From IMG/VR virus record IMGVR_UViG_3300008262_000052: 64,000 nt of DNA; one strand, written 5' to 3'. Positions 21,766-59,774 of the stretch are shown here, in pieces. Below the pieces are notes generated by a model. That model did no database searches. It worked only from the letters and a program-made list of their open reading frames with translations, and was not told the origin of the DNA. The stretch is from a virus (taxonomy: Duplodnaviria > Heunggongvirae > Uroviricota > Caudoviricetes). Position 1 is the stretch's first letter, and each line of letters begins with the position of its first letter. The position numbers and the translations under genes were made by a program.

Positions 21766-21789
21766 ATATACTAAATAGGAAATAAATTT

Positions 21790-23259
21790 ATGCGTTATAG
21801 TGATTTTAAATTAGTTGAAGGCCTACTGGGAAAACCCACCGACGACAAATACCTTCCAGCGGTAAACCAATTACTCAAAGATCCAAATCACAAATTTCCA
21901 GTAGGAAAGTCGGGCGAAAAGGGCTCGTTGATGCCTTTGCCAGGACAGCAAGTGTCTTCTAGACAAGATAAAATAGTTGGTTATATGGTCCAAAATACGG
22001 ATCAAAAAATAAGTGATGCGTATCTTCAATCTCTAAAGGACCTAGCTCCTGAACAGGTTCAAGCAGAACTAAAAAAACAGGTTCCTATTACACTTATGCA
22101 GATCGCAGACGCAAACATTCCTAACGCAAGTCAACCTGCACAACAGGAACTTAAAGCTAGAAAAATTTCTGTTCTAGTTAGTACACTGTTTAAATCAGAT
22201 GAAATAAAACTAGCCGCTGGAAAAAGTGTATCCGATAAAGAAAAGTATCAAATTAAACCCAGTCAAATTTTTAATGACGAGAGATTTCCTGCGTCACAGG
22301 TTTTCAATGAAGTAACACAAAATAAAACTTTGTCACAATCTGATATCGGAAAGTATATTATCGAAATGGCAAAAGAAATTCAAGCAGGAAAGTTTCCAAG
22401 TCTAAACAACGTTCCTGATGAATTTCAAACTGCAATTAGAGATTATGCAGGAGAATATCTAGGTGTGTTAGCCTTAATTAAAGGTATTGCTAACTTTCCC
22501 ACAAGAGATCAATGGTTTGAGCATTTAGGTGTAAACAACTTAGAAGGAATTTATATAAACTTTCCACAGCAAAGCAACTTTGCTCTAGGTGATAGCATAG
22601 GTAGTTTTGAAAATGCCAACACCGGAAATATGATCTTAATCAGCAGCAAGGGCGGCAGCAAGGGCGCTCCACCTAGTTTAAACAATTTAAAAATTCCTGA
22701 AAATCTAGAAAAAAGCAACGAATATAGAGTAGAAGTTGATGTAATCAAAACTTTACAATCTTCGGATGCATTAAAGCAGCCGTTCCTAGGGTTGAATAAA
22801 ATTTTTGAATATAATCCAGATGCAATTGATCCATTGTTTAGACAAGCCTTACCGATTACAACCGAAGATCTAGCACTAATAAAACAATTTACTAACAGTC
22901 GCCTTTACAACAAGAGAGATGTAAGTGAATTATCTGATAAATTTAGAAAAATTGTTGGACGATCAAACTTTGAAAGAATTAAACTCGAAGCCACTCCGGG
23001 AGGTATAATTCATTATTTGTTTACTAAAGCAATAATTGAAGCAGTAAATAAAAATAATGCATTACCAAATTTTGAACCAATGGCAAGAGAAATATTGCAA
23101 AAAAACTTTATTCAAATTTTTGCTAGACCCAAAAACGGCAAACTTACATTTGATGTATTGTGGCCAAATAAAGAAATGGCCACAGGTAAAATAGAACTTT
23201 ATAGTAAAGCAAGTTCTACAGATCCTGGCAAAGCCAAATTAAGTTTCAGCGTAACTTAA
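21790..23259 (+). CDS. hypothetical protein
   Basis: 489 aa ORF. No motif recognised. Confidence 0.5.
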   Translation: MRYSDFKLVEGLLGKPTDDKYLPAVNQLLKDPNHKFPVGKSGEKGSLMPLPGQQVSSRQDKIVGYMVQNTDQKISDAYLQSLKDLAPEQVQAELKKQVPITLMQIADANIPNASQPAQQELKARKISVLVSTLFKSDEIKLAAGKSVSDKEKYQIKPSQIFNDERFPASQVFNEVTQNKTLSQSDIGKYIIEMAKEIQAGKFPSLNNVPDEFQTAIRDYAGEYLGVLALIKGIANFPTRDQWFEHLGVNNLEGIYINFPQQSNFALGDSIGSFENANTGNMILISSKGGSKGAPPSLNNLKIPENLEKSNEYRVEVDVIKTLQSSDALKQPFLGLNKIFEYNPDAIDPLFRQALPITTEDLALIKQFTNSRLYNKRDVSELSDKFRKIVGRSNFERIKLEATPGGIIHYLFTKAIIEAVNKNNALPNFEPMAREILQKNFIQIFARPKNGKLTFDVLWPNKEMATGKIELYSKASSTDPGKAKLSFSVT

Positions 23260-23480
23260 TTATTTTACTGCCTTCTCGTCGTGTTCGCACCTGTGGCAAA
23301 CATCGTTACGACAATGTTTGCAGTCTTCGTGACAGTGACATTCGTGTCCGCAATTTTTGCATTTAGGTTTAGGTGCTTTCACAACATTCTCCTCTATACG
23401 GTATTTATTACCCGATCTATAATACGACTACAAAATTTTTTTGCCTCTTACAGTAAATATATAGTGGAGGCGCTGTCTTA

Positions 23481-23945
23481 ATGAAAAAAATCTCGATAGT
23501 CATGTTGATGCTATTACCGACATTTGCAAATGCAGAATTAGTTCATACATTTAAAAATCCAAGTTTTAGCGGTGAAGGGTATAGTAATCATGTGTTGGGT
23601 ATTGAACAACTAGGGTTCAATAGACAAAAAGATATTGACGATGCTATTGCTGCTGAACAAGAACGCATAGAGCGAGAATTAGAAAACTCAACACTCAACA
23701 AATTTTTACGCAACATAGAAAGTAGAATATATGCTACACTATCCAAGCAGATGGTGGATGCTATGTTCGAGTCTTGTGCTGATGAAACAGGAGCAACTTG
23801 TCCGACCAGTGGTACAACTGAAATAGAAGGCAGTACTATTAGTTGGAGCAAAGACACTGTTACCGGTAGTATTACTTTGGAGGTTGTAAGCGATGAAGGA
23901 ACAACCACTATTACTATACCTGGCGCAGGGGAGTTTAACTTTTGA
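23481..23945 (+). CDS. csgF: curli assembly protein CsgF homologue
   Basis: Signal peptide. Mature N-terminus HTFKNPSFSGEGYSNHVLGIEQLGFN matches CsgF [26 protein letters not shown]. Confidence 0.7.
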   Translation: MKKISIVMLMLLPTFANAELVHTFKNPSFSGEGYSNHVLGIEQLGFNRQKDIDDAIAAEQERIERELENSTLNKFLRNIESRIYATLSKQMVDAMFESCADETGATCPTSGTTEIEGSTISWSKDTVTGSITLEVVSDEGTTTITIPGAGEFNF

Positions 23946-24721
23946 TTAAAGCAGCATTAGTAGGATTGTTATTTCTAACTGGATGTGTGTCGATAGAAGA
24001 ACAAGCCAGTGAAATCATAGAAGAACCGAGAATTCAAGATAATCCCTTGCGTGTAGAACTTGCAAATGTTCCTGCACTAAATGGACCTAAGATGACTATC
24101 GGTGTTTACAGTTTCACAGACAAAACCGGGCAACGAGAGCCAGCAGATAACTTTAGCAGTTTGAGTAGTGCAGTAACACAAGGTGCAGAAGTTTGGGTAA
24201 TAGATGCACTGATGCAGGTAGGCAACGGCAGTTGGTTTGAAGTTGTAGAACGTGTAGGCATGGACAATGTAATTGCAGAACGTCAACTTATACGTCAAAC
24301 AAGAGAAAATTATTTAGACAATCCTGATCCATTGAATCCTATGCAATTTGCAGGGTTGATACTAGAAGGCGGAATAGTGGGATATGACAGTAACGTAGCA
24401 ACAGGAGGAACCGGAGCACGTTACTTTGGAATAGGCGCAGGATCGGAGTACAGAGTAGATACTGTAACAGTTGCAATGCGTTTAGTAAGTGTTAGCACAG
24501 GAAGAGTGCTAATAAGTGTGGCTACTGAGAAAACTATAGCTAGTCACAAAACTGGTGCAGATGTATTTAAGTTCTTAGACATGAGCACCAAGGCACTGGA
24601 AATCGAGAGTGGATTTAGTGTCAACGAACCTACCAACTATGCTGTGAGGGCAGCAATAGAGGCAGGAATAATAGAACTAATATACGAAGGAGCTCGTAGA
24701 GAGCTGTGGAGTTTTAAATGA
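23942..24721 (+). CDS. csgG: curli secretion channel lipoprotein CsgG homologue
   Basis: Lipobox LTGC. IGVYSFTDKTGQ. GYDSNVATGGTGARYFGIGAGSEYRVDTVTVAMRLVSVSTGRVLISVATEKTI is near-identical in pattern to E. coli CsgG GYESNVKSGGVGARYFGIGADTQYQLDQIAVNLRVVNVSTGEILSSVNTSKTI. Confidence 0.9.
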   Translation: MIKAALVGLLFLTGCVSIEEQASEIIEEPRIQDNPLRVELANVPALNGPKMTIGVYSFTDKTGQREPADNFSSLSSAVTQGAEVWVIDALMQVGNGSWFEVVERVGMDNVIAERQLIRQTRENYLDNPDPLNPMQFAGLILEGGIVGYDSNVATGGTGARYFGIGAGSEYRVDTVTVAMRLVSVSTGRVLISVATEKTIASHKTGADVFKFLDMSTKALEIESGFSVNEPTNYAVRAAIEAGIIELIYEGARRELWSFK

Positions 24722-24733
24722 GGGCAATAAAAA

Positions 24734-25426
24734 ATGAAAAAAATAATAATAGGGGCCTTGTTTGTACTAGTTAGTTCTGCGGCCTTGGCTAACGAAATCT
24801 ACATACAACAAATAGGGGACAACCTTGCATTGACTGTTAGTCAAACCGGTTCTGGCAACAAGATCGGCGACCTGTCAACAACTGCACCTGCCTTGCTTTC
24901 AGGTGATGATATGACATTTGATATTACACAAAACGGCGATTATAACGTTATAGCAGCAACTATTAAGGGCAATACATATACAGGTGACTGGATATTCAAC
25001 GGGGACAGCAACACAGTTGATTTAACCTGCGATATAACAAACGGCGCAAACTGCGAAATTGTAACAGTTGACATTACAGTTAATGGAAACAGCAACGACT
25101 TTAGCGTATATATTGGTGAAAATAAAGTTACAGATAACCTTGTAGCAGAATTTACCATCGACGGCGACGGCAACGTTATTTTAGCCAACTTGGATGCAAC
25201 CAATGCTGATGTTACATTTACCATTGACAATAGTTTAGCAGCCAGCGGCAACACTGTTACCATAGATCAAGATGATGCAGGCGGTGTAAACGGACACAGT
25301 ATTACCTATGATTTAACAGGTGGCGGAAATAATATCAACATAACACAAAGCGGATTAACGGACAAGACCGTTAATGTAACATCAACGGCCAACGACGGGA
25401 CTGTAACAATTACACAGACTGATTAA
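24734..25426 (+). CDS. secreted curlin-repeat-like protein (candidate amyloid subunit)
   Basis: Signal peptide. First repeat IYIQQIGDNLALTVSQTGSGN fits the curlin repeat S-x5-Q-x-G-x2-N-x-A-x3-Q. Further degenerate Q/N/G repeats (DITQNGDYNVIAATIKGN). Confidence 0.55.
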   Translation: MKKIIIGALFVLVSSAALANEIYIQQIGDNLALTVSQTGSGNKIGDLSTTAPALLSGDDMTFDITQNGDYNVIAATIKGNTYTGDWIFNGDSNTVDLTCDITNGANCEIVTVDITVNGNSNDFSVYIGENKVTDNLVAEFTIDGDGNVILANLDATNADVTFTIDNSLAASGNTVTIDQDDAGGVNGHSITYDLTGGGNNINITQSGLTDKTVNVTSTANDGTVTITQTD

Positions 25427-28998: not shown

Positions 28999-29250
28999 AT
29001 GAACTGGTTTAGAAATCTATTCTTGAAAGAAGCAAATGAAAACCCCGGAGCATCAGAAATCTCTGTTAGAGTTGCTGAAATTCAGGCCCGCATCGCCGCT
29101 ATTAGAAGCCGCAATGGATGGGACCAAGAACCCTATAAAAATTCTAAAGCACAATCCCAGTATGTGGTGGCGGAAGAAAAACACCCGGTAAAAAATAAAT
29201 CTCAAGAAATGGATGCACTAAAAGCAAAACTGTTAGGAAAAAAATTGTGA
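28999..29250 (+). CDS. hypothetical protein
   Basis: 83 aa ORF coupled to the cyclase gene. Confidence 0.4.
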   Translation: MNWFRNLFLKEANENPGASEISVRVAEIQARIAAIRSRNGWDQEPYKNSKAQSQYVVAEEKHPVKNKSQEMDALKAKLLGKKL

Positions 29251-31289
29251 AAAAACTGTTATTATCACCTGTTTGGAGCATTGTAATTTTAGGGTTGTTG
29301 GGCTGGTTACAGTTCAGTAACCCTGATTTTTTGGAAAGTCTACGTTTACGATATTTTGATCAGTTGATAGTAAATCAAGCACCTGTAGAAAATAACATTT
29401 ATACAGTTAATATAGATGAAGCAAGTATTACTGCTCGCGGTCAGTGGCCTTGGCCAAGAGGCGATTATGCTAAACTAATAGAGGATCTATATGCACGTGG
29501 CGCAGGACTAGTTGTGTTTAACGTGTTGATGAGCGAAACAGACAGAGCAGGACAAGACAGGATACTATCAACTACTATGGGTAATTATCCTGTTGTAGTT
29601 ACAATGTTAGGAACTGAGGAAAATAAAAATGAACCAATCAACCCTGGTGCTAGTATCATTAATAGTGACTTTATTGATCTTATCCCTGCCGTGCCTGGCA
29701 TCACAGCAAACGTGCCTGCCATTGAAAATGCAGCAGTTGGGTCAGGAATTATCAATACCTTTCCAGAAATTGATGGAGTTGTCAGACGTGCTCCGCTAGT
29801 ACTAGAAAGTGGAGGAATACTATACCCTAACGTTACTATGGAAGTGCTTAGAGTTCTAGCAGGGGATCCTAGTTTCCAAATCAAATTATCACCGTTGGGA
29901 GTTGACAAATTACGAATTCCGCAATACGGTGTACTACAAACTGATGGACTTGGTAGAGTATGGTTAGACTGGAGTCAAGGCTTTAGCAGTCACAGTGCAG
30001 CAGAACTACCTGCAGACTTTGCCGGAGGTATAGTATTTGTAGGTCCTACTGCGGCTGGCATTACACAACCAATTGCAACAGCCAAAGGCGGCGTGTGGCC
30101 ACATGAACTACAGGCTATGATGTTAGGCACAGTGTTTAATGCAAGTAACATAGAACGCCCTGCATGGTCACCAGGTGCCGAATTATTAGCATTTGTACTT
30201 GCCGGATTAGCACTAATAGTTGCTGCACGTTGGACTTATGCGGGCATTGGCATTTTTGTAATACTTGTAGGTGGGTCAATCGGTGGTAGCATCTATGCCT
30301 TTGCTACCTACAACTTCTTGATTGATGGATTTTTACCTGCGGCGTTTCTATTGCTTGTAGGTATTATACGTTATGTAATCAAATTTGTAAGTGAGTTCTT
30401 ACAAAAGCAAGCAATCAAGAAACAGTTCGAAGGATATGCATCACCTGCCGTAGTTAAGTTATTGCAAACAAACCCAGATCTTGTCAAGAAAGGCATGAAG
30501 AAAGAAGTAAGCATACTGTTTAGCGATTTACGTGGCTTTACACCATTAGGTGAAAGTTTCGGCGACGATGTTGCAGGACTTACTAAAATAATGAATGGAT
30601 ACATGGATGCTATCACACAGCCTGTGCTAGATGCAAACGGTATGATTATTAAATATATCGGTGATGCAAGTATGCATATACACAATGCACCAGTAGACGA
30701 TCCTGAACATGCAAAGACAGCAGTTGCTACTGGTTTAAAAATGTTACGAGCAGTAGAGAATTTTAATGAAACAGTCATCATACCCCAAGGAAGACCACCA
30801 GTTGGCATGGGCGCCGGAATCAACACAGGTCTCGGATACATCGGAGAAATGGGGTCAACCAAACGTCACAGTTACGACGTACTTGGAGACGCAGTCAGCA
30901 CCGCCGCAAGAATCGAATCAAAATGTAAAGAATACGGCTGCTTATTACTCGTGGGTGGCGCTACAGTAGAACAGTGCAAAGACGAATTCTTCTTCCTCAA
31001 AGTAGATGACTTAGCAGTTAAAGGTAAAACTGTAGGTGTTGCTATCTATACTGTATTAGACGATGTTAAACCAACATGGAAAACCAGTAAAAAACATCAT
31101 GATCAAATGCACAAACTATATCGTATGAAACAGTTTGATGAAGCAATAGAACAGTGTAATTTAATTCGCAGAGCATTTGACGGCAAAATGGAAAAATACT
31201 ACGATATGTGGATTGAACGTTGTGAATACATGAAAACGCAAACATTGCCAGCAGATTGGAATGGCGTGTTTATTGCCCTGACAAAGTAG
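29247..31289 (+). CDS. membrane CHASE2-sensor class III adenylate/guanylate cyclase
   Basis: N-terminal TM, periplasmic CHASE2-like region, three TM helices. Catalytic domain VSILFSDLRGFTPLGESFGDD...IKYIGDASMH...GAGINTGLGYIGEMGSTKRHSYDVLGDAVSTAARIES matches the CYCc pattern (F.D..GFT, GD, RI.S). GTG start. Confidence 0.8.
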   Translation: MKKLLLSPVWSIVILGLLGWLQFSNPDFLESLRLRYFDQLIVNQAPVENNIYTVNIDEASITARGQWPWPRGDYAKLIEDLYARGAGLVVFNVLMSETDRAGQDRILSTTMGNYPVVVTMLGTEENKNEPINPGASIINSDFIDLIPAVPGITANVPAIENAAVGSGIINTFPEIDGVVRRAPLVLESGGILYPNVTMEVLRVLAGDPSFQIKLSPLGVDKLRIPQYGVLQTDGLGRVWLDWSQGFSSHSAAELPADFAGGIVFVGPTAAGITQPIATAKGGVWPHELQAMMLGTVFNASNIERPAWSPGAELLAFVLAGLALIVAARWTYAGIGIFVILVGGSIGGSIYAFATYNFLIDGFLPAAFLLLVGIIRYVIKFVSEFLQKQAIKKQFEGYASPAVVKLLQTNPDLVKKGMKKEVSILFSDLRGFTPLGESFGDDVAGLTKIMNGYMDAITQPVLDANGMIIKYIGDASMHIHNAPVDDPEHAKTAVATGLKMLRAVENFNETVIIPQGRPPVGMGAGINTGLGYIGEMGSTKRHSYDVLGDAVSTAARIESKCKEYGCLLLVGGATVEQCKDEFFFLKVDDLAVKGKTVGVAIYTVLDDVKPTWKTSKKHHDQMHKLYRMKQFDEAIEQCNLIRRAFDGKMEKYYDMWIERCEYMKTQTLPADWNGVFIALTK

Positions 31290-32847: not shown

Positions 32848-33030
32848 ATGCGCTGGGAAATAGTAACAGAAAAAAATAGATATATAGTTAGTGCTACCAG
32901 CAGCGGCAATGCTGTTGCACATGTTAAAGAAAAAAAGAAAGACAACAGTACATTGAAAAGTGTTAAATTAATGCCAAAGAACTTGGTAGATACTCTACAA
33001 GGCAAATGGAGAGAACGTTTTGGTAAATAA
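32848..33030 (+). CDS. hypothetical protein
   Basis: 60 aa ORF after the divergent intergenic region. Confidence 0.35.
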   Translation: MRWEIVTEKNRYIVSATSSGNAVAHVKEKKKDNSTLKSVKLMPKNLVDTLQGKWRERFGK

Positions 33031-33202
33031 AACGTATTCAGTTGAAGAAGTGTTTCAAGACATCAACGGCGACCCTGAGAACGTGTTAATGAATATTCCT
33101 CAGGAAATTGCTGAACAGTTGGGCTGGAAACCAGGCGACGTCTTAAAGATTGAAGTGTTAGAAGAAGGTGGCGTCGCTATATCCAAGGTAGAGAATGGCT
33201 AA
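33020..33202 (+). CDS. AbrB/MazE-like swapped-hairpin small protein
   Basis: [26 protein letters not shown] resembles the SpoVT/AbrB domain. Confidence 0.45.
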
Positions 33203-33410
33203 AGAAGATATATTAGAATTAGAAGGCAGTATCATAGAGGTACTGCCCAATCAAACATTTCGTGTTGAATTAGAAAACGGGCATAGAGTAACCTGTTATA
33301 CTGGAGGCAAAATGCGCCAGTTCAAAATTCGCCTGGTACAAGGTGATCGTGTTAAAATTGAAATGACACCATACGATCTTGACAAAGGCAGAATTATGTT
33401 TAGAATTTAA
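33195..33410 (+). CDS. infA: translation initiation factor IF-1
   Basis: [70 protein letters not shown] is collinear with bacterial InfA ([70 protein letters not shown]). Confidence 0.9.
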
Positions 33411-33411: not shown

Positions 33412-33440
33412 TTGACAACAGACTAATCATCGTTTATATT
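33412..33440 (+). promoter_or_regulatory. sigma70-like promoter TTGACA-N17-TATATT
   Basis: Upstream of the 33498 gene. Confidence 0.6.
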
Positions 33441-33497: not shown

Positions 33498-34556
33498 ATG
33501 AACAAACGTGCGACCCGTAAACTTACGGATATAATTGCCGACGTCAAAGTCGATCTTGCTGCCAATTTTGCTATCAAAGATGAAAATCTTGCGATCTTTC
33601 GTAATCGTGTAGATGTCAACGGACATAAATTTCCCGAAGGTGGAAAACTTGTTCCAATCAACGAACTTTGGATTGACTACGAAGTTCAACGTGATGTAAT
33701 CATCAAACACATCATTACCATTCTTAAAAAATATGATCCTCGTCTTTGCACACCTGCATCTGCTTGCCGTGTGAATGGTGCAAAACAAATTCTAACCTAT
33801 GACGGGCAACACCGTACTATTGCAACTGCATTGCTTGGCTACGAACATGTTCCTTGCACTGTTGTAAACACCGACGACCCTGCATTTCCTAGTTATGCAT
33901 TTGAAGAACTCAACGAGTCTGGTGTTAAGAAACTGAGCCCCGGCGATCTGCATCGTAACGCTCTTACTCGTTACAAACTTGGCAGTACCGAAGAAAAGAA
34001 CTTCAAGGCTCGTACTATGCAGGATCAATTTGATGAGAACGGAATTGATCTTGAAGACAAAGGCACTCGTCGTAGTGTTAAATTGCGCGGATCCAACGAT
34101 TACTTCTTTTCACACTTTGCATATGCCTACAAAGGCATCGACGTTGACAAGAGCGGCAAAACCCTTGACAGTATTCTCAATGCAATTGTAACTGTGTACA
34201 AACACGACGAAGAAGTTAACCAAGACTTGTACATCGGGCTATATGAACTGAGCCGTCTTGATAGTCGTCAGGAACTGCCTGATGGTTGGATGCTAGAAGT
34301 TCTGCAAACCATTGCACAAACATTCAATCGCAGTACTTCGGTTAATGGTTCTTTGTTCAAAGAAAAAGCAAAACTGCAAGTGAGTTATGTTTCGCCGGGT
34401 CGCGGTTGGGATGCACCAAACATTATGTCTAACTTCATTCGTGAACTGTACATAATCAACGGCGGCAAACTCAACCTTCCTTACCACGGCGACGGTGCAA
34501 AACTTCAACTTGCTGAAAATCCTGCTCCTGGACTGTTTCCTAAAAAGGCTGCTTAA
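33498..34556 (+). CDS. DGQHR-domain protein (DndB/DpdB-like, ParB-type nuclease fold)
   Basis: ILTYDGQHRTIA contains the literal DGQHR signature of the DndB/DpdB DNA-modification accessory family. Confidence 0.6.
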   Translation: MNKRATRKLTDIIADVKVDLAANFAIKDENLAIFRNRVDVNGHKFPEGGKLVPINELWIDYEVQRDVIIKHIITILKKYDPRLCTPASACRVNGAKQILTYDGQHRTIATALLGYEHVPCTVVNTDDPAFPSYAFEELNESGVKKLSPGDLHRNALTRYKLGSTEEKNFKARTMQDQFDENGIDLEDKGTRRSVKLRGSNDYFFSHFAYAYKGIDVDKSGKTLDSILNAIVTVYKHDEEVNQDLYIGLYELSRLDSRQELPDGWMLEVLQTIAQTFNRSTSVNGSLFKEKAKLQVSYVSPGRGWDAPNIMSNFIRELYIINGGKLNLPYHGDGAKLQLAENPAPGLFPKKAA

Positions 34557-35102
34557 ATGCTCAAAGAAGCAATTGAACGTTTTCGCGAACCTGTATATGT
34601 TCGCACTAAACGTAACCTAGAATCGTATGCTGCTACGGCAGCATACGTTACTAACAATCTTACTCGTCTTGTTTACCTGTATCATAATACCAAAAACGAT
34701 GAACAGACTTATCGTTTGATTCGTGATGATATCGACAATGCACTGCGGCGTTATCATGGCTACTGCATCAAAGAAAACTTTGGCGCACACTACGTTGAAG
34801 TAGGGCTCGAAGGCAACGGAATTTTTGAACACATGGTTCCTAACAGCACCGTTCGAGATCTATTGTTGGCTGGTGTAATTACTCCTACACAGGCTTGCAA
34901 TATGCCCACAGCACGTATCAGCGTAGAAAAAGACACACTGCTACGTGAAAAGGGTTGGGCTAGCCGCACACCAGATATCTATAACTTTTGGTGCCGCTAT
35001 CAGTATTGCTTTGATACAGCAAATCTGTTTGTAACTCACGACGGTGTATCAGTAGACACAACTATGACCCTAGCAGATCACTTTAGGTTGTTTTTGTCTT
35101 GA
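34557..35102 (+). CDS. hypothetical protein
   Basis: Directly abuts the DGQHR gene stop. Confidence 0.45.
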   Translation: MLKEAIERFREPVYVRTKRNLESYAATAAYVTNNLTRLVYLYHNTKNDEQTYRLIRDDIDNALRRYHGYCIKENFGAHYVEVGLEGNGIFEHMVPNSTVRDLLLAGVITPTQACNMPTARISVEKDTLLREKGWASRTPDIYNFWCRYQYCFDTANLFVTHDGVSVDTTMTLADHFRLFLS

Positions 35103-35127
35103 CACCATGATAAATTGATGTTATACT
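35099..35127 (+). promoter_or_regulatory. sigma70-like promoter TTGACA-N17-TATACT
   Basis: Upstream of the 35152 gene. Confidence 0.55.
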
Positions 35128-35151
35128 TATTAAAATTTAAAGGAACATACA

Positions 35152-35712
35152 ATGCTAAACACAGAAATCCTAACAGATCTAAAGGCGTTTAATTGGCAAG
35201 GAATTGTTGAATATGGAAACTCTCTTGAAGACTTTAATGATGCACAATGGAGATTTCTCAAAGGTCTGATTGCAGAACTAACAGTAGAAACACACTCAAA
35301 CAATAATCTAAAATATGTCGGTGAAGATCACAGAGATTACGTTTGGCCAAAACACAACATCGACGTTGAATTAAAAAGTCAACTCAGCGATAATATGTAC
35401 AAAAAAGATGGTAGTCTACGTAAAAACTACGAAGTAAAACTAAGCAACACAAATGGCACCAACAAGAACAAAACCTTGCCCGAATCACATGTAGCAGATT
35501 GTGTGATTGTAGTACGCAACGACGGTGCTTTTGTTCTCGACAAAAAGACAGTGTTGAAACATGCCAAAGTTCAAGGCGACGGTGTTGTTGTTAAAGTACC
35601 CAAAGCAGCAATTACGGAAGTTTCTGGTCGTATCCTTTGTGAAAACACGTATAATAATAATCTAAAGCAACTAATTATGGATGCAATTCGCAATGACATT
35701 CCAGGTCTATAA
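35152..35712 (+). CDS. hypothetical protein, possible PD-(D/E)XK nuclease
   Basis: GEDHRDY...IDVELK could be a D...(D/E)xK core. Overlaps the methyltransferase start. Confidence 0.4.
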   Translation: MLNTEILTDLKAFNWQGIVEYGNSLEDFNDAQWRFLKGLIAELTVETHSNNNLKYVGEDHRDYVWPKHNIDVELKSQLSDNMYKKDGSLRKNYEVKLSNTNGTNKNKTLPESHVADCVIVVRNDGAFVLDKKTVLKHAKVQGDGVVVKVPKAAITEVSGRILCENTYNNNLKQLIMDAIRNDIPGL

Positions 35713-36565
35713 TCAAGACTGCATTACAGGAATCAAAGACCACGTTGCCGATGGCAACGTGGATCTTATTTTTACAGATCCGCCTTACGGTATTGACGGC
35801 GACAAACTGGACGCTCACTATCATCGTGACGAAAGTTTTGTTGTACCTGGGTATGTGGACGTTCCTTTAGAAACCTATGCACAGTTTAGCAAAGACTGGA
35901 TCGGCGAATGTGCTAGAGTACTACGTCCGGGCGGCAGTATCTATATTGTAAGTGGTTATACAAACCTTCATCATATTCTAAATGCATTGCACAGCACTGA
36001 CTTGAAAGAAGTCAATCATATCATTGCAAAATACAGTTTTGGTGTGAGTACAAAAAACAAGTGGGTCAGCAGTCACTATCACATTCTGTTTTGGCAAAAG
36101 CCCGATAAGGGCAAGCAAACAAGAACATTCAACAGTAATGTTTATTTCACAGATCAAAAAGACAGTTATCACGACCGTCTTACAGTGCAGGACATGCCTC
36201 GGGCTCATAATCCTGGACAATTGAAAAACAAGAATCAACTCAACGAATCGTTTATTGAAAAATTTGTTCTTTACAGCAGCAACAGAGGCGATGTTGTGAT
36301 GGATCCGTTCTGCGGAGGATTTACCACAGCCAGAACCGCACTACGCTATGGAAGAAAATTTGTTGGGTTTGAGATGAATAAAAATGCCTATGATGCATTT
36401 GTTCCTACACTGGACTCAGTCAAGGCTTTGCCAGATCCTACTCCAAAGAGTCCAGAAGCAGAAGAACTTGCCAAGAGAGAAAAAATGCGCGAAGGCTGGC
36501 GCAAAGACAGAAAAAAGAAAAAAGAACTAGATCCTAAATTGTTCGAAGTTAACAAAAAAAAATAA
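35681..36565 (+). CDS. DNA methyltransferase, beta-class (N6-adenine or N4-cytosine)
   Basis: Motif IV LIFTDPPYGI precedes motif I VMDPFCGGFTT (circular permutation of the beta class, PF01555-like). Lys-rich tail. Confidence 0.85.
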   Translation: MQFAMTFQVYNQDCITGIKDHVADGNVDLIFTDPPYGIDGDKLDAHYHRDESFVVPGYVDVPLETYAQFSKDWIGECARVLRPGGSIYIVSGYTNLHHILNALHSTDLKEVNHIIAKYSFGVSTKNKWVSSHYHILFWQKPDKGKQTRTFNSNVYFTDQKDSYHDRLTVQDMPRAHNPGQLKNKNQLNESFIEKFVLYSSNRGDVVMDPFCGGFTTARTALRYGRKFVGFEMNKNAYDAFVPTLDSVKALPDPTPKSPEAEELAKREKMREGWRKDRKKKKELDPKLFEVNKKK

Positions 36566-36568: not shown

Positions 36569-36597
36569 TTGACAACCCGTGCGTCTTGTTGTATGTT
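36569..36597 (+). promoter_or_regulatory. sigma70-like promoter TTGACA-N17-TATGTT
   Basis: Upstream of the 36626 gene. Confidence 0.6.
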
Positions 36598-36625: not shown

Positions 36626-37330
36626 ATGGATACGTTTTCAACTGATGAAGCACTTAAACTATCATTTGCTATCTATCGTATCAACAAAAACTACTACAAA
36701 GAAACTGTATACGATAAGGATGGCAATGTTTCCTTTTGGGGCAACAAGGATGCTATCAAGTTTATGTTTGCTCTCAAGGCCATCAGCGAAGGCAGCAAGA
36801 ATCACTGGGTTCCTGAACAGTTCGAGCCTGTTGAAGTTACGAATGAAGATGTTGCTGCTCTAGAATCTGCCCGCAGTCATTTCAAGCGTTACACGTTTCT
36901 TATGATTGGCAACGATCTCAGTCAGTTTCAGCGTGATACGTTTGCTGCGTTTAGCAGCGAAGAATGTACACCTAAGAATGTAGGCTTTGTTGCTTATGTT
37001 CCTGCAATGATTCAACGAGAACTGCACGATCTTGCTTACCGTCGTCGTCTCAAAACTGATTTTGTTGATTCTGTGCATTATAACGTTGACAGTTCAATCT
37101 CAGGCGAACTGGAAATCCTTCGTTCGTTTTATCTCAAAGACTACAATCTTTACAGTTATATTGCTGGTGTTGGCGGCAATCTTGTGCATTTTAACAAAGA
37201 CAAAAAATACGAAATCGGCAGTAAATATAGTATAAGGGCAAAAGCCAAAAAGCATGAGATCGAGTATGACACTCGGTTGCCGATGACTAAATTGAATTAC
37301 GTTAAACTTTCATATATTGAGGAAAAATAA
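36626..37330 (+). CDS. hypothetical protein
   Basis: 234 aa, RBS GAGG. Confidence 0.5.
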   Translation: MDTFSTDEALKLSFAIYRINKNYYKETVYDKDGNVSFWGNKDAIKFMFALKAISEGSKNHWVPEQFEPVEVTNEDVAALESARSHFKRYTFLMIGNDLSQFQRDTFAAFSSEECTPKNVGFVAYVPAMIQRELHDLAYRRRLKTDFVDSVHYNVDSSISGELEILRSFYLKDYNLYSYIAGVGGNLVHFNKDKKYEIGSKYSIRAKAKKHEIEYDTRLPMTKLNYVKLSYIEEK

Positions 37331-37542: not shown

Positions 37543-37679
37543 GTTAGAGCCGTTTTAGCGACTAAAGTCAGACGGTACAGTATCATTTACTAAACATAGG
37601 GAAACAGGCACAATGACTCCAGTGGATATGAAATAGTTTTTTCTTGTCCAATTGCGGTCTATGCCTTATAATAAAAAAT

Positions 37680-38279
37680 ATGATTAAGATCCAAGGCAAA
37701 CTCCCCCGCAAAGTATATCTTGCCTGCTCCGGCGGCATTGATAGTATGGCAATTTTAAATTTTCTACAAAACAATCATGATGTAACTGTATTACATTTTG
37801 ATCATAGAACCAGCAATTCTATGTACACTCTAGACTTTGTTGATGACTACTGTATTAAAAACGATATCAAATTTATCGGCGGTAAGATTCGTGAAGACAA
37901 GCCAAAAGATATGAGTCATGAAGAATTTTGGCGAGAAAAACGCTACGAGTTCTTGGACCTATTTACAGACGCACCTGTGATTACAGGACATCACTTGGAT
38001 GACTGCGTGGAAACTTGGATCTTTAGTTCGCTGCACGGTACTGGTAAAATTGTACCGTATCGTAGAAAGAACGTTATCCGTCCGTTTAGATTAAATATGA
38101 AACGTGATATTGCCTTGTGGTCTAATATGCACACGGTACCGTATGTTGAAGATCCTAGCAATGCGGATATCAAGTACACAAGAAACTATATTAGACATGA
38201 ACTAATGCCACACGCATTAAAAGTAAACCCAGGATTATACAAAACCATCAAAAAGAAGGTAATTGAAAATGGCTGTTAA
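37680..38279 (+). CDS. tilS: tRNA(Ile)-lysidine synthetase-like PP-loop ATPase (TilS N-terminal catalytic domain)
   Basis: PP-loop SGGIDS. HHLDDCVETWIF matches TilS hHLdDqaET. RPFRL..R.DIALW....H.VPYVEDPSN.D..YTRNYIRHELMP matches TilS RPLL..tR.el..wa......wieDeSN.d..y.RNflR..vvP. Start set at the internal ATG (ORF from 37644). Confidence 0.75.
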   Translation: MIKIQGKLPRKVYLACSGGIDSMAILNFLQNNHDVTVLHFDHRTSNSMYTLDFVDDYCIKNDIKFIGGKIREDKPKDMSHEEFWREKRYEFLDLFTDAPVITGHHLDDCVETWIFSSLHGTGKIVPYRRKNVIRPFRLNMKRDIALWSNMHTVPYVEDPSNADIKYTRNYIRHELMPHALKVNPGLYKTIKKKVIENGC

Positions 38280-45067: not shown

Positions 45068-45151
45068 GGTCGGTGGCCCGGATGGTAAGGGGATGGACTG
45101 CAACTCCATAGCACTGCAAAGTAATGTGTTCGATTCACATACCGACCTCCA
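45068..45151 (+). tRNA. tRNA-Cys(GCA)-like, atypical
   Basis: Acceptor GGTCGGT/ACCGACC. Anticodon arm ATGGA-CTGCAAC-TCCAT. T-arm ATGTG-TTCGATT-CACAT. Encoded CCA. The 14-nt variable region is unusual for Cys. Confidence 0.35.
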
Positions 45152-45206
45152 AACAATGATGTGGTAGCACAACGGTATTCGAATCCAGCCTACATCACCA
45201 AACTAT

Positions 45207-45283
45207 GGGACATTGGACTTCTTGGCGAAGGTCGCCGCCCTTTCAAGGCGGAGAAACGGGTTCGAAACCCGTATGTCCTACCA
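45207..45283 (+). tRNA. tRNA-Glu(TTC)
   Basis: Anticodon arm CCGCC-CTTTCAA-GGCGG as in alphaproteobacterial tRNA-Glu. T-arm ACGGG-TTCGAAA-CCCGT. Encoded CCA. Confidence 0.7.
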
Positions 45284-45289
45284 AAATAA

Positions 45290-45374
45290 GGGAGAGACGC
45301 CTCAAGGTGAGGCAGTGGACTGTAACTCCATCGCGGCAACGCACGGACGGGTTCGATTCCCTCCTCTCCCACCA
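45290..45374 (+). tRNA. tRNA-Tyr(GTA)
   Basis: Anticodon loop CTGTAAC. Long variable arm (GCG-GCAA-CGC). Acceptor GGGAGAG/CTCTCCC. T-stem with 2 mismatches. CCA encoded. Confidence 0.65.
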
Positions 45375-45380
45375 AAATAT

Positions 45381-45456
<76 letters not shown>

Positions 45457-45501
45457 TAATTGTTTTTTTGTTATAAATATTCTAGTATTTAGGAGAACAT
45501 A

Positions 45502-45945
45502 ATGAAAAAAATACTTTTAACTGTAGCACTGATTGTTGCTGCATCCACTGCATTTGCTGAAGTAAAAAAGCCAACTGGTGTAGCACACGACTTAAAAATT
45601 CTACGTGTAGTAGATGGTGATACAGTTGAATTTGAAGCAAAGTTCTTGCTAGATCCACTTCCGAAGAAACTATCACTTCGTGTATGGGGCGTAGATACAC
45701 CTGAAAAAGGTGGCAGAGCAGAATGTAAAAAAGAAGGCGACATGGGTGATGCTGCAAGTAAATTTACAAAAGATTTAGTTGCAAAAGCCAAGACTACTCA
45801 AATTGTATTTTATGAGTGGGACAAGTTCGGCGGCAGAGTGCTAGGTGATGTTCTTATCGACGGTAAGAGCCTAACACAGATGCTTATTGAACAAGGTTAT
45901 GCTAGAGAATACTACGGCGACAAAAAGCAGTCGTGGTGTAACTAA
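45502..45945 (+). CDS. secreted staphylococcal-nuclease (SNase/thermonuclease) homologue
   Basis: Signal peptide. VVDGDTV. RVWGVDTPEKGG matches the SNase catalytic block (RLxGIDAPE). TATAAATA box at 45472 upstream. Confidence 0.75.
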   Translation: MKKILLTVALIVAASTAFAEVKKPTGVAHDLKILRVVDGDTVEFEAKFLLDPLPKKLSLRVWGVDTPEKGGRAECKKEGDMGDAASKFTKDLVAKAKTTQIVFYEWDKFGGRVLGDVLIDGKSLTQMLIEQGYAREYYGDKKQSWCN

Positions 45946-45964
45946 CAAACATACAACTATTAAT

Positions 45965-46042
45965 GCACCGGTAGCTCAGCCAGGTTAGAGCCGCGGACTC
46001 TTAATCCGAAGGTCGTGGGTTCAACTCCCACCCGGTACACCA
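45965..46042 (+). tRNA. tRNA-Lys(CTT)
   Basis: Anticodon loop CTCTTAA. T-arm GTGGG-TTCAACT-CCCAC. One acceptor mismatch and a 27:43 mismatch. CCA encoded. Confidence 0.7.
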
Positions 46043-46101
46043 ATTCAAGGAACAAAAATGAAACGAAAACGTAACAAAGAAGAAAGCGACAAACGAAACG
46101 T

Positions 46102-46177
46102 GGACCGGTAGCTGAGGTGGTTTTAGCACCCGACTTTTAATCGGAGTACGTGGGTTCGAATCCCACCCGGTTCACCA
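46102..46177 (+). tRNA. tRNA-Lys(TTT)
   Basis: Anticodon loop CTTTTAA. T-arm GTGGG-TTCGAAT-CCCAC. 27:43 C:A mismatch. CCA encoded. Confidence 0.75.
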
Positions 46178-46278
46178 TTGGTTTGATGATACACTGAGTG
46201 GCATTTAGGCCGCCACATAAAATAAACCTATCGGACCAGAAATGGTATTGGTCAGTGTATCTTCTAAACAATGAATAT

Positions 46279-46353
46279 TGCCTCTTAGCTCAGTGGTAGA
46301 GCAATCCCCTGATAAGGGATAGGTCACTAGTTCAAATCTAGTAGGGGCAACCA
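46279..46353 (+). tRNA. tRNA-Ile(GAT)
   Basis: Anticodon arm ATCCC-CTGATAA-GGGAT. T-arm ACTAG-TTCAAAT-CTAGT. CCA encoded. Confidence 0.75.
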
Positions 46354-46360
46354 GAATAAT

Positions 46361-46435
46361 GCCGTGCTTGGTGTAAGGGTAGCATACCGCACTGTGACTG
46401 CGTCGGAATAGGTTCAAATCCTATACACGGTACCA
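46361..46435 (+). tRNA. tRNA-His(GTG), irregular acceptor/D region
   Basis: Anticodon loop CTGTGAC. T-arm ATAGG-TTCAAAT-CCTAT. Discriminator A and no G-1, as in many alphaproteobacteria. Confidence 0.55.
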
Positions 46436-46441
46436 AACGAT

Positions 46442-46517
46442 ACTTCCGTAGCTCAACTGGAAGAGCGCCACCCTACGAAGGTGATTGTTGCAGGTTCGAG
46501 TCCTGCCGGGAGTGCCA
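46442..46517 (+). tRNA. tRNA-Arg(ACG)
   Basis: Anticodon arm CCACC-CTACGAA-GGTGA. T-arm GCAGG-TTCGAGT-CCTGC. CCA encoded. Confidence 0.8.
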
Positions 46518-46565
46518 AAGTTAAACTGTACTATTTCTATCTAGACCTATTCTATAAATATTTTT

Positions 46566-47084
46566 ATGATGAGGGCTATGTTACTAACAGTACTGTTACT
46601 ATCAGTATCTGCTTGTGCAAAAATTCAATTGTTTACTACTTCACCGACACCGCCAGAACCATTGGTTGCTGCAACAGAAAAACTAGGGTGGAGTGAAAAG
46701 AGTCATAGAGCAGAAATAAAAGATTTTATCGGTGTTGATCCAGTTGCCACTGAATGGTGTGCTGCATTTGTAAATGCAGTGCTTGCAGAAACTGGATTAC
46801 CTGGGTCTGATGAATATGCAGAACATCCTCTACTGGCAAGAAGTTTTCTTGATTGGGGCGTAGAAGTAGACGAACCAGAATCAGGTGATGTTGTTGTGTT
46901 TAAGCGTGGCAATGCCAATTGGAAAGGTCATGTTGGATTCTTTGTAACTTCAACCTATCACAATGGTCAAGAATACTATTTGGTGCTTGGTGGAAATCAA
47001 GATAACAGTGTTAACTTTAGTGCATATCCTGTTAGAAAATTGCTAGCAGTGAGAAGATACCCATTCGAAGACGAATTAGAATAG
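46566..47084 (+). CDS. lipoprotein CHAP/NlpC-P60-like peptidoglycan hydrolase (TIGR02594-like)
   Basis: Lipobox LSVSAC. Candidate catalytic Cys in EWCAAFVNAVL and His in GHVGFFV. GDVVVFKRG. Confidence 0.55.
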   Translation: MMRAMLLTVLLLSVSACAKIQLFTTSPTPPEPLVAATEKLGWSEKSHRAEIKDFIGVDPVATEWCAAFVNAVLAETGLPGSDEYAEHPLLARSFLDWGVEVDEPESGDVVVFKRGNANWKGHVGFFVTSTYHNGQEYYLVLGGNQDNSVNFSAYPVRKLLAVRRYPFEDELE

Positions 47085-47360
47085 GCTGAGTTCAGTGTTT
47101 CTCGAGATAAACTGTTCCAGCAGATCATCGGCCCGCCCCACCGCGCCGCCTCGGCAAACGTCAACATGCGTGGCAAGAAAACTAAACATATAAGCTGCTG
47201 GTGCTGTATATGCGTTGACATGCGTGAAAAGATCATGTATAGTATACACAAGAAATAAATAAGAGATAAAGAATAGGTGGCGGCAACCACCGTGGCAACT
47301 GACCTTTTGTTGCAGTAACTTCGATGTCGTTGTCGAGATATAGAAAAGTGCTGCAATGAT

Positions 47361-47430
47361 CGTGTGTATCGTCTAGAGGATAGGACGCCGGCGTGGAGTC
47401 GGAGACAAGGGTTCGAGTCCCTTTGCACTT
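47361..47430 (+). pseudogene. degenerate tRNA-like element (tRNA-Glu-type scaffold)
   Basis: ATCGTCTAGAGGATAGGAC...AAGGG-TTCGAGT-CCCTT mirrors the D and T arms of alphaproteobacterial tRNA-Glu. The anticodon and acceptor stems do not pair properly. Confidence 0.3.
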
Positions 47431-47451
47431 TGTCAGTTGTCAGAAATTTAG

Positions 47452-47527
47452 CCTTCGTAGCTCAACTGGAAGAGCAAGGGATTTCTACTCCCTAGGTTGT
47501 GGGTTCGACTCCTGCCGGGGGCACCAA
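47452..47527 (+). tRNA. tRNA-Arg(TCT)
   Basis: Anticodon arm AGGGA-TTTCTAC-TCCCT. D-arm GCTC-AACTGGAA-GAGC. CCA encoded. Confidence 0.8.
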
Positions 47528-47539
47528 ATAAATACTACG

Positions 47540-47615
47540 CTTCCGTAACTCAGCGGTCAGAGTGCCACGCTTCGAACGTGGTGGTCGAGGGTTCGAATCC
47601 TTCCGGGAGCTCCAT
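47540..47615 (+). tRNA. tRNA-Arg(TCG)
   Basis: Anticodon arm CCACG-CTTCGAA-CGTGG. T-arm GAGGG-TTCGAAT-CCTTC. CCA encoded. Confidence 0.75.
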
Positions 47616-59755: not shown

Positions 59756-59774
59756 AATATACGGAGCGTGGGCC

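Follow-up and report, generated by a model that had tools for sequence, protein, structure and literature searches.

Four adjacent genes in a 64,000-nucleotide stretch of DNA from an uncultured tailed phage (IMG/VR record IMGVR_UViG_3300008262_000052; the whole stretch is hereafter the window) raise the question of whether a protein with the DGQHR signature of the DndB and DpdB families, two small proteins encoded after it, and a DNA methyltransferase (MTase) form one DNA-modification or anti-restriction cassette, as a sequence-only reading of the region had proposed. All four open reading frames (ORFs) described there were present with the same coordinates and lengths, and are called genes A, B, and C and the MTase gene here (Table 1). 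The source phage is large, uncultured, and aquatic, and of the virulent type.

Table 1. Genes and promoter candidates of the locus, in window coordinates.
Feature	Position	Strand	Description
Gene A	33498-34556	+	352 aa ORF
Gene B	34557-35102	+	181 aa ORF
Gene C	35152-35712	+	186 aa ORF
MTase gene	35681-36565	+	294 aa ORF, beta-class N6A/N4C DNA methyltransferase
Sigma-70-like promoter candidate, A-B unit	33412-33440	+	TTGACA, 17 nt, TATATT; score 11/12
Sigma-70-like promoter candidate, C-MTase unit	35099-35127	+	TTGACA, 17 nt, TG-TATACT; score 11/12
Sigma-70-like promoter candidate closing the C-MTase unit	36569-36597	+	score 10/12
Next gene after the MTase gene	36626-37330		234-aa ORF; preceded by the promoter candidate at 36569-36597

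Two candidate transcription units

The stop codon of gene A directly abuts the ATG of gene B with zero gap, and the ATG of the MTase gene sits 32 nt inside gene C with overlapping frames, an overlap of the same length being present in the relative L088. The cluster had been credited with promoters of its own. Each of the three intergenic gaps does contain one site in which an exact TTGACA is followed by a 17-nt spacer (consensus matches only): the first sits in the 87 nt that separate gene A from the IF-1 gene, the second, whose -10 element is extended by a TG, in the 49 nt between genes B and C, and the third ahead of the next gene. These sites, however, do not frame a single cluster but would set A-B, C-MTase, and the next gene apart from one another.

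Gene A was followed by gene B in 87 of 87 related phage loci, on contigs of up to 357 kb, and in 81 of these loci neither C nor the MTase gene lay within 6 kb. Because the neighbourhood of A-B is conserved mostly without C and the MTase, because promoter-like sites fall in all three gaps, and because genes A and B abut, we read the region as two independent, separately promoted two-gene units of a cyanophage-like jumbo phage.

Gene C and the methyltransferase

A possible D…ExK nuclease core had been noted in C, and the comparison with relatives bore this out: E42…D62…E73-x-K75 was invariant in 37 homologues that were 40-82% identical. C is predicted from these residues to be a PD-(D/E)xK nuclease of an orphan family. 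It had no match in Pfam, PDB, or PADLOC, no known restriction-endonuclease model fitted it, and searching every C-family member against Pfam at E values up to 10 returned only noise. The ORF at the position of C in locus L001 proved on comparison to be unrelated to it.

The MTase exceeded the PF01555 cut-off by a wide margin (110.7 bits, 1.3e-31; cut-off 26.7) and matched the PADLOC model MTase_II PDLC03296 (4.5e-81) and CcrM (6pbd; 1.4e-19). The sequence-only reading had described a permuted MTase with DPPY before FxGxG and a start overlapping the previous gene. The overlap and the order stood, DPPY (residues 33-36) preceding motif I (DPFCGGFTT, residues 208-216) as in the beta class, but motif I, which aligns to DPFFGVGTT of CcrM, reads FxGxF. 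C would be a PD-(D/E)xK nuclease translationally coupled to a DPPY-type MTase, probably an N6-adenine one. A hairpin at 35740-35762 was considered as a conserved C/MTase attenuator and rejected, being absent from 28 relatives.

As far as the sequences go, C and the MTase could be a pair resembling type II restriction-modification systems, or else C could be a repair nuclease that happens to adjoin an orphan MTase. With type II pairs that have beta-class MTases (such as PvuII-type systems) and with chlorovirus-type viral restriction-modification systems the unit shares a small, here predicted, PD-(D/E)xK-type nuclease gene overlapping a PF01555 MTase gene behind one promoter, here a candidate, and an MTase far better conserved than the nuclease. 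The latter was the pattern across loci here, where the MTase was 70-83% identical and C 36-59% identical or detectable only with a profile, as is usual for methylase/endonuclease pairs. A C-family gene lay within about 2.7 kb in 44 of the 54 assessable MTase loci and directly abutted the MTase gene in 32. The unit differs from such pairs in that C fits no endonuclease family, that C often occurs without this MTase, and that its carrier is a virulent-type jumbo phage.

The first two of these differences leave room for C as a repair or recombination nuclease of the PD-(D/E)xK class (junction or flap processing), with the adjacent MTase as an orphan anti-restriction methylase. An MTase of this type was found in 12 of 39 C-family loci, and the other 27 had none within 5 kb, at least three of these ending right after C; the MTase-less loci instead had UvdE, a 5'-3' exonuclease, AAA ATPases, and a NUMOD3 homing endonuclease as neighbours. 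This second role would have to accommodate the conserved frame overlap, the frequent proximity of C to the MTase, and the pair-like difference in identity, and we regard it as a genuine possibility, if a somewhat doubtful one. The C-MTase pair matters mainly if a virulent phage is proven to carry a working restriction-modification system.

Gene A and the DGQHR/DGQQR branch of the ParB/Srx superfamily

The DGQHR domain is defined by three motifs, QR, DGQHR, and FxxxN, which are also present in GmrS (PMC4619093). Gene A encodes all three (residues 64-65, 102-106, and 135-139, respectively). The literal DGQHR on which the earlier family assignment rested is conserved: in the 121 members of the family, D, G, and Q did not vary, the fourth position was H in 68 and Q in 53, and the fifth was R in 115. 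Since the motif is conserved throughout these 121 members, it can be taken as no chance pentapeptide. Q64, R65, F135, and N139 were in turn invariant across 49 members, and in keeping QR, DGQ[HQ]R, and FxxxN the protein is more than a generic ParB-fold hit. A has the ParB/Srx fold (ParB N-terminal/sulfiredoxin) with a GxxR phosphate loop, followed by a helical, family-specific C-terminal half of about 190 residues. By its motifs A falls in the DGQHR/DGQQR branch of the superfamily, and it is predicted to bind nucleoside triphosphates.

The assignment to DndB or DpdB held for the branch motifs but not at the level of curated models. A of the window matched neither the PF14072 (DndB) nor the TIGR03187 (DGQHR) HMM, PADLOC returned nothing, and a PDB sequence search with the A profile found nothing. 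TIGR03187 was the family most often touched, by seven of 49 A-family members (best E 0.0025, all below threshold); PF14072 was touched by one (E 0.0059, below threshold), and PF03235 (GmrSD_N) was matched by only one (E 0.13). A thus has no curated-level membership in DndB, DGQHR, DpdB, GmrSD_N, ParB_N, or DUF6551, and filing it as DndB or DpdB was rejected for lack of a curated HMM match.

Two other comparisons bear on the placement of A. Aligned with the published GmrS alignment using hhalign, A gave a probability of 60% (P 8.7e-5) over 39 columns covering FExxN…L..DLxxN, and the GmrS HMM matched the full-length A-family members P0307 and P0308 in both motif segments. The second is with DUF6551 (PF20188), a family of phage and bacterial ParB-fold proteins of unknown function, whose consensus (L..D..YQR…H…FD…P…DGQHR…G…VPC…F…N) resembles A over residues ~50-157 only; A has in addition its own C-terminal half and an obligate partner, B. 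The DUF6551 HMM matched none of 49 A-family members, whereas of 73 remote relatives retrieved by searching with the A profile it matched 44, and on that account A is a neighbour, not a member, of DUF6551. In the remote A-like protein P0413, whose match to the profile spans positions 47-287, an HNH domain (DHIIP…CEPCN) is present at the C terminus.

A nuclease-type motif in gene B

B is built of a long helical hairpin and a small alpha/beta domain. F90, E91, H92, P95, N115, and D126 were invariant in 48 members, and the segment I89-F-E-H-M-V-P95 contains an EHxxP motif. EHxxP is needed for nicking by SspE (PMC10164549), and the first motif of GmrD is (I/L/V)(E/D)H(I/L/V)xPQ (PMC4619093). When B was compared with the GmrD alignment using hhalign, the best local match fell on the EHxxP motif; this match was weak (P 0.012 and 0.0027, probability 4-11%), and it aligns H92 with the His and N115 with the last Asn, the first Asn being replaced. 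The order of secondary-structure elements is compatible with a His-Me finger (beta-beta-alpha-metal) fold. B members did not match HNH or DUF1524 Pfam models even at E values up to 10, B has neither the zinc-binding Cys pairs typical of HNH domains nor their canonical structural Asn, and neither a fold match nor a hit in a PDB sequence search with the B profile was obtained. We regard B as a candidate His-Me finger (HNH-type) nuclease subunit.

A possible split nuclease

We propose that A and B form a split, two-subunit, NTP-regulated nuclease of the GmrSD/SspE kind, a proposal with somewhat less than an even chance of being right. The GxxR-containing DGQ[HQ]R loop of A would bind, and probably hydrolyse, a nucleoside triphosphate during loading on DNA, while B, translated from the abutting frame and in complex with A, would supply a His-Me finger (HNH-type) site that nicks or cuts DNA, in which E91-H92 would act as general base pair and N115 would bind the metal. 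The target would most plausibly be DNA of the host or of a competing phage. Phage ParB folds of the DUF6551 type bind CTP or ATP in vitro (bioRxiv 10.1101/2025.10.10.680097), and the HNH fusion in P0413 points, by analogy, to nuclease coupling of A-like proteins.

GmrS and GmrD, into which the type IV restriction enzyme GmrSD is split in some cases, are, like A and B, encoded by two adjacent genes, one for a ParB/Srx-fold protein with QR, DGQ(Q/H)R, and FxxxN…DLxxN and one for a protein with (I/L/V)(E/D)H(I/L/V)xP…Asn (PMC4619093), and the EHxxP motif of B is the nicking motif of SspE (PMC10164549). There are also differences. Both A and B fall short of the Pfam models for GmrSD (GmrSD_N/DUF262 and DUF1524); the spacer from DGQxR to FxxxN is ~70 residues in the GmrS alignment and ~28 in A; and B, at 181 aa, has a long helical hairpin and is without the GNL Asn. 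A-B occurs only in large phages, not in bacterial defence islands, and is far more conserved than usual defence genes. Such strong core-gene conservation is unusual for a defence-type nuclease and counts against the proposal, as do the scores of A below curated thresholds, the missing HNH/DUF1524 matches of B, and its weak GmrD profile match.

A-B nonetheless has the hallmarks of the ParB-NTPase plus HNH architecture behind the defence enzymes GmrSD, SspE, and BrxU. If the pair is an active nuclease, the same architecture serves phages too, in the form of a conserved gene pair, and is not confined to host defence, and A-B would offer a naturally split, small model for the control of a nuclease by a ParB-type NTP switch.

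Alternative roles for A and B

One alternative is that A is a DpdB/DndB-like NTPase that loads or regulates a DNA-modifying enzyme, either B as a new base or backbone modifier or the nearby MTase. DndB, the DGQHR domain, and DpdB share with A the QR, DGQHR, and FxxxN motifs and a ParB/Srx fold with a helical C-terminal domain, seven A-family members touch TIGR03187, and the action of DpdA requires the ATPase activity of DpdB (PMC10164549). In phages, ParB folds are commonly fused to PF01555 MTases (bioRxiv 10.1101/2025.10.10.680097). Some tie between ParB-like proteins and this MTase is plausible because several relatives carry divergent ParB-like paralogues next to C and the MTase. Yet A-B stands without the MTase in 81 of 87 loci, and B carries the nuclease-type EHxxP that DpdB specifically lacks (PMC10164549).

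The genes that such a helper would serve were not seen either, in agreement with the earlier observation that no DndACDE or DpdA/QueC-type partner was visible. Pfam families for dndACDE, tgt/dpdA, and queCDE were not found among the called genes (~3,400-52,000 of the window), Dnd families were not found in the 6-10 kb flanks of the 87 related loci, and dpdA (tgt-like), dpdC, and preQ0 synthesis genes were not recorded in the window. The sole PP-loop protein (37644-38279) was considered as a hidden QueC/DndC-type partner and rejected, as it passes the cut-off for the TilS N-domain (114 bits; cut-off 93.6) and is surrounded by translation genes and 26 tRNA genes. The phage sequence strongly avoids AGCT and other palindromes; this avoidance would be unnecessary under broad hypermodification and so argues, at the level of sequence composition, against general protective hypermodification of the phage DNA. 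The region is not a Dnd or Dpd DNA-modification system, and we consider a modification helper unlikely.

Similarly improbable is a role of A as an NTP-gated DNA clamp of the KorB/ParB kind, organising or silencing phage or host DNA, with B as its small non-catalytic partner in the way KorA is to KorB. The conserved GxxR phosphate loop, the strict pairing with a small partner, the early-type promoter candidate, and the core-gene-like conservation would all suit a clamp. Neither a helix-turn-helix nor a ParB C-terminal dimerisation domain was detected in A, however, the invariant His, Glu, Asn, and Asp of B in their EHxxP context look catalytic rather than structural, and the P0413 fusion suggests coupling to a nuclease.

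Within the split-nuclease proposal, a more specific version can be envisaged, in which A-B is a core, phage-borne, type IV-like, modification-sensing nuclease used offensively: A would act as an NTP-driven, ParB-like sensor and B as a minimal His-Me nuclease, and together they would recognise and destroy either the chromosome of the host, which is heavily methylated, or modified DNA from rival phages, but leave the DNA of their own phage intact. We think this version quite unlikely; if true, a bacterial defence architecture would have become an essential takeover tool of an uncultured jumbo-phage clade.

Distribution of the A-B pair

Gene A is represented by >1,000 protein clusters (90% identity), with about 55-65% identity, from freshwater and marine metagenomes. 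Neither the region (megablast) nor A (tblastn) had a match in 50,697 records of cultured phages, the pair is missing from every cultured phage in INPHARED, and no relative of the A-B family was found in 185,579 bacterial and archaeal genomes with family-specific peptide patterns, which distant relatives would escape. Pfam, PHROG functional annotation, PADLOC, and PDB do not cover the pair. The >1,000 clusters of A, together with the variety of ORF families that have inserted at the A/B junction, are evidence for a core gene pair, one seen in large phages only.

These neighbourhoods largely refute the idea, which we rate as very improbable, that all four genes act and move together as a single anti-restriction/DNA-modification cassette: the genes are contiguous in the window, C or the MTase otherwise accompanies A only in near-identical contigs, in L089 (A, B, an 88-aa ORF, C, MTase), and in L048 (C alone, upstream of A), and L113 has the order C-A-B, but against this stand the 81 A-B loci without C and MTase, the absence of A-B from most C or MTase loci, and the promoter-like site between B and C.

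The insertions between A and B occurred in 57 of the 87 loci and comprised ORFs of at least eight unrelated families, some with HNH homing-endonuclease motifs. The homing-endonuclease label rests mostly on motifs read by eye, two inserted ORFs giving merely a weak HNH match in a phmmer search of the PDB (E 0.075). The A/B junction is a natural landing site for putative mobile endonuclease genes, and A-B serves well to mark a large jumbo-phage clade without cultured members.

Gene layout and phage setting

The sequence-only reading had tentatively placed a DGQHR (DndB/DpdB-like) protein, a possible nuclease and a beta-class methyltransferase in a single DNA-modification or anti-restriction cassette. 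All four of the ORFs that it named are present in the window sequence and are called A, B, C and MTase here (see table). Its claim that they have their own promoters held in part. Promoter-like sites, each pairing an exact TTGACA with a good -10 element across a 17-nt spacer, occur at 33412, 35099 and 36569, one per intergenic gap, but, judged from consensus matches alone, they would separate the genes into the transcription units A-B, C-MTase and the next gene.

The window as a whole derives from a phage. Its genes lie on one strand, with the exception of three small ORFs that follow 29247-31289, and they encode a ribonucleotide reductase and a T4-type RNA ligase. Heme oxygenase, bilin reductase, ribosomal protein S21, HSP20 and ClpS are also encoded, as is typical of the auxiliary genes of cyanophages. 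Near-identical contigs came from JGI metagenomes and NCBI metagenome assemblies, and a protein identical to B is present on contigs of up to 297 kb. No cultured phage was found to have this DNA or protein A in common.

Coordinates of the four window genes and of related features on homologue-bearing contig loci
Feature	Sequence	Coordinates	Strand	Description
A	window	33498-34556	+	ORF, 352 aa
B	window	34557-35102	+	ORF, 181 aa; ATG directly after the stop codon of A
C	window	35152-35712	+	ORF, 186 aa
MTase	window	35681-36565	+	ORF, 294 aa; ATG 32 nt inside C
Intervening ORF	L001	11055-11486		between A and B homologues
Intervening ORF	L022	7048-8037		between A and B homologues
ParB-like paralogue	L088	6736-7905
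ParB-like paralogue	L096	6455-7588
ParB-like paralogue	L097	5616-6758
ParB-like paralogue	L160	4937-6136
ParB-like paralogue	L168	1747-2952
ParB-like paralogue	L170	4908-6053
ParB-like paralogue	L171	4976-6154
ParB-like paralogue	L090	7469-8662

A and B are a conserved gene pair

We evaluated linkage by searching the window proteins with tblastn against 87 loci with an A homologue (IMG/VR, ENA, JGI and NCBI contigs of up to 357 kb). B was downstream of A in every one of them, at identities of 42-100% for B and 52-100% for A. C and the MTase were limited to four near-identical contigs, L089 (both) and L048 (C alone). The idea of one four-gene cassette is thus not upheld, since C and the MTase are absent from most A-B loci and the two units are separable; the real partner of A is B. 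A pattern-limited scan of one genome per species from 185,579 bacterial and archaeal species found no relative of A, and the A-B pair therefore appears to be confined to phages.

The two genes are at most 60 nt apart in 30 of the 87 loci, and a variable ORF sits between them in the other 57. These intervening ORFs belong to at least eight mutually unrelated families. HNH-type motifs are directly readable in two, one of which matched an HNH domain in the PDB weakly (E 0.075). By eye, HNH-like or GIY-YIG-like motifs could be seen in several of the intervening ORFs. Mobile endonuclease genes appear to use the junction of A and B as an insertion site. Since homing endonuclease genes of the free-standing kind usually lodge between strongly conserved neighbours, we infer that A and B belong to the core genes of this phage clade.

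Protein A belongs to the DGQHR branch of ParB-fold proteins

By definition, a DGQHR domain combines three motifs, a QR pair, FxxxN and the DGQHR pentapeptide, all of which are shared by GmrS (DUF262), the partner of GmrD in the split type IV restriction enzyme GmrSD (PMC4619093). Protein A carries the literal pentapeptide at positions 102-106. Its first three residues, D, G and Q, never vary in 121 homologues; the fourth is H in 68 of them and Q in the other 53, and R is kept in 115, which makes DGQ[HQ]R the family motif. Q64-R65 and F135…N139 are likewise invariant. The sequence-only reading had allowed that its DGQHR match might be a generic ParB-fold hit. Because all three motifs are kept, family-specific conservation is present, and the placement of A in the DGQHR branch is borne out.

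Curated models gave a different answer for the narrower assignment. Window A had no match in Pfam, NCBIfam or PADLOC other than a stray SerK hit (E 0.013), and it matched a PHROG "ParB-like" entry at 6e-5. Of 49 family members, seven reached TIGR03187 (DGQHR; best E 0.0025), one reached PF14072 (DndB; E 0.006), one reached GmrSD_N (E 0.13) and none matched the DUF6551 model. No curated criterion therefore makes A a DndB or DpdB. The AlphaFold model of A is good (pLDDT 89) and its fold match spans residues ~50-160; the helical C-terminal half had no convincing match.

Searching 1.84 billion representative proteins with the A profile returned just 265 matches, about 20 of them full-length family representatives, with the others matching only positions ~50-157. 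Of 73 such remote matches, 44 are DUF6551 proteins, and 13 also matched GmrSD_N, four ParB_N, one DndB and one HNH; their consensus reads L..D..YQR…H…FD…P…DGQHR…G…VPC…F…N. Aligning the A profile by hhalign to the GmrS alignment from the supplement to PMC4619093 gave a probability of 60% (P 8.7e-5), with AFEELNESGVKKLSPGDLHRNAL placed over IFEtlNdrG..Lt..DLiKN, and the GmrS HMM matched full-length A-family members at both the DGQxR and the FxxxN segments. We place A within the DGQHR/DGQQR branch of ParB/Srx proteins as a new and deeply diverged member whose nearest family is DUF6551.

Protein B is a candidate His-Me finger nuclease

None of 48 B members matched Pfam, even at E values up to 10, and a PDB sequence search with B gave no match. 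The predicted model is very confident (pLDDT 95) and consists, in order, of a long helical hairpin (21-73), strands 79-81 and 89-92, helices 96-104 and 110-114, strand 118-121 and helix 123-131. Invariant residues include H67, Y69, H78, Y79, F90-E91-H92, P95, A113, N115, P117, D126 and W134.

The segment I89-F-E-H-M-V-P95 agrees with two published motifs, namely the first motif of GmrD, (I/L/V)(E/D)H(I/L/V)xPQ (PMC4619093), and the EHxxP of SspE, which is SspE-specific, is needed for nicking and is missing from DpdB (PMC10164549). In hhalign comparisons with the published GmrD alignment, the best local match of the B profile was exactly at EHxxP (P 0.012), and the trimmed core (P 0.0027) placed G106…N115 on the G…N of L(G/A)NLxLLxxxN with identical spacing. 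P0413, a remote A-like protein of 475 aa from the profile search, matches A profile positions 47-287 and has a C-terminal Pfam HNH domain (DHIIP…NL…CEPCN; DHIIP…CEPCNMNKSNSTEKD). A greedy, non-significant alignment set EHMVP…ACNMPT…VEKD of B in the same register as this domain. These motif-level agreements come from independent sources and none is statistically strong; the His-Me finger nuclease subunit is therefore the best-supported but unproven reading of B, and the key catalytic assignment rests on motifs. P0413 itself is a naturally occurring fusion in which an A-like ParB-fold domain, with part of its helical extension, is linked to a canonical HNH domain.

A-B is best read as a new, uncharacterised form of the theme that joins a ParB-NTPase to an HNH nuclease, and it is widespread among uncultured jumbo phages. 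Its family is abundant, and finding the architecture of a defence enzyme in a pair of phage core genes is unusual.

Proposed mechanism of A-B

We propose a mechanism by analogy with GmrS/GmrD, SspE and DpdB (PMC4619093; PMC10164549) and with phage DUF6551-type ParB folds, which bind CTP or ATP (bioRxiv 10.1101/2025.10.10.680097). A would bind a nucleoside triphosphate through its DGQ[HQ]R (GxxR) loop and engage DNA, and B, produced together with A from the adjoining frame, would nick or cut through an E-H…N metal site. The fold of A, the motifs, the linkage and the restriction to phages are observed; complex formation, the NTPase and nuclease activities and the target belong to the proposal. 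We hold this scheme tentatively, giving it as a whole not quite an even chance. An early-type promoter and core-gene status would fit degradation of host or rival DNA, and would also suit a part in the DNA metabolism of the phage itself.

C and the methyltransferase

C belongs to an orphan family of 66 clusters. In an alignment of 37 homologues, E42, D62 and E73-x-K75 are invariant, along with W15, R34, K37, G38, N99, G102, N104 and G142-D-G144. The possible D…ExK nuclease core noticed earlier is thereby supported, and by its residue pattern C is a putative nuclease with the classical E…D…ExK signature. The MTase was correctly described as a permuted beta-class enzyme that overlaps the preceding gene: it scores 1.3e-31 with PF01555 and 4.5e-81 with PADLOC MTase_II, DPPY precedes motif I, and its best solved relative is CcrM. 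The DPPY motif suggests N6-adenine as the target base. A hairpin at 35740-35762, with a perfect 10-bp inverted repeat (CCACGTTGCC GAT GGCAACGTGG; dG ~-21 kcal/mol) followed by a T-rich tract, lies inside the MTase frame 28 nt past the C stop codon; it was not conserved in 28 related MTase genes.

Two readings of this unit have roughly equal weight. Fifty-nine loci have an MTase at 70-83% identity to that of the window, and 44 of the 54 that could be assessed have a C-family gene, directly abutting in 32, one gene away in 10 and downstream in two; the 32-nt overlap recurs in L088. From the C side, by contrast, an MTase of the same type was found in just 12 of 39 loci, and elsewhere C sits beside UvdE, a 5'-3' exonuclease, AAA ATPases or a NUMOD3 protein. 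In some members of the C family, C and the MTase may therefore form a type II restriction-modification-like pair; alternatively, C may be a repair or recombination nuclease adjoining an orphan methylase.

Although A-B and C-MTase are separable units, a loose association between them recurs. ParB-like proteins of 365-399 aa, divergent paralogues of A in which the motif has degenerated to DAQHT, DGQQS, DGQHT or DGHHT, adjoin the C-MTase pair in L088, L096/L173, L160, L164, L168, L170 and L171, and C alone in L097. Their usual 3' neighbour is not B but a different small ORF of ~100-114 aa; in L090 a B homologue comes next. The 331-kb genome of L088 seems to have a canonical A-B elsewhere too (L039), as the two contigs are almost the same length. 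These recurrent paralogues, the L090 arrangement and the fusions of ParB folds to PF01555 methyltransferases that are common in phages (bioRxiv 10.1101/2025.10.10.680097) leave some room for the earlier idea that a ParB-like protein assists the methylase, to which we assign a low probability.

Evidence against modification of the Dnd or Dpd type

Among the genes called over ~3.4-52 kb of the window, and in the neighbourhood of A in related loci, no dnd, dpd, tgt or que family is on record, in agreement with the earlier remark that no DndACDE or DpdA/QueC-type partner is visible in the window. The sole PP-loop enzyme (37644-38279) passes the TilS N-domain cut-off and sits amid translation genes and tRNAs, one with a CAT anticodon. 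Across 1-64000, AGCT is strongly avoided (40 observed, 182 expected under a maximal-order Markov model; z -10.5), as are the 6-bp palindromes CTGCAG (5/25, observed/expected), GTGCAC (1/16), GCATGC (0/6.6) and TGCGCA (0/6.2). Such a pattern resembles the classical avoidance of sites cut by host restriction enzymes, and it argues that the phage DNA is not broadly hypermodified.

Neighbouring features of the window

Just upstream of A, a 60-aa MazE/AbrB-type protein (SpoVT-AbrB fold; 33020-33202) overlaps the start of an IF-1 homologue (33195-33410). Just downstream of the MTase, a 234-aa ORF (36626-37330) has its own promoter-like site and no family match. The PP-loop protein at 37644-38279 is a stand-alone TilS N-terminal domain without the tRNA-binding C-terminal part of full TilS. 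Together with IF-1, S21 and 26 tRNA genes (45068-47614 and 59680-63710; the CAT-anticodon tRNA at 63326-63401), it makes up an unusually rich translation module for a phage.

The ORF at 29247-31289 encodes a 680-aa fusion of a CHASE2 sensor domain to an adenylate/guanylate cyclase, and one of the three small opposite-strand ORFs after it has a faint EF-hand match. The heme oxygenase and ferredoxin-dependent bilin reductase genes, of cyanophage type, lie in ~19393-25426 with genes for HSP20, ClpS, CsgF- and CsgG-like curli secretion proteins and a FecR-domain protein. At 9414-12422, a molybdopterin oxidoreductase ORF of ~1,000 aa, with formate-dehydrogenase/NADH-G-like iron-sulfur and molybdopterin domains, is located in a local GC island (0.57, ~0.41 elsewhere), which suggests recent acquisition.
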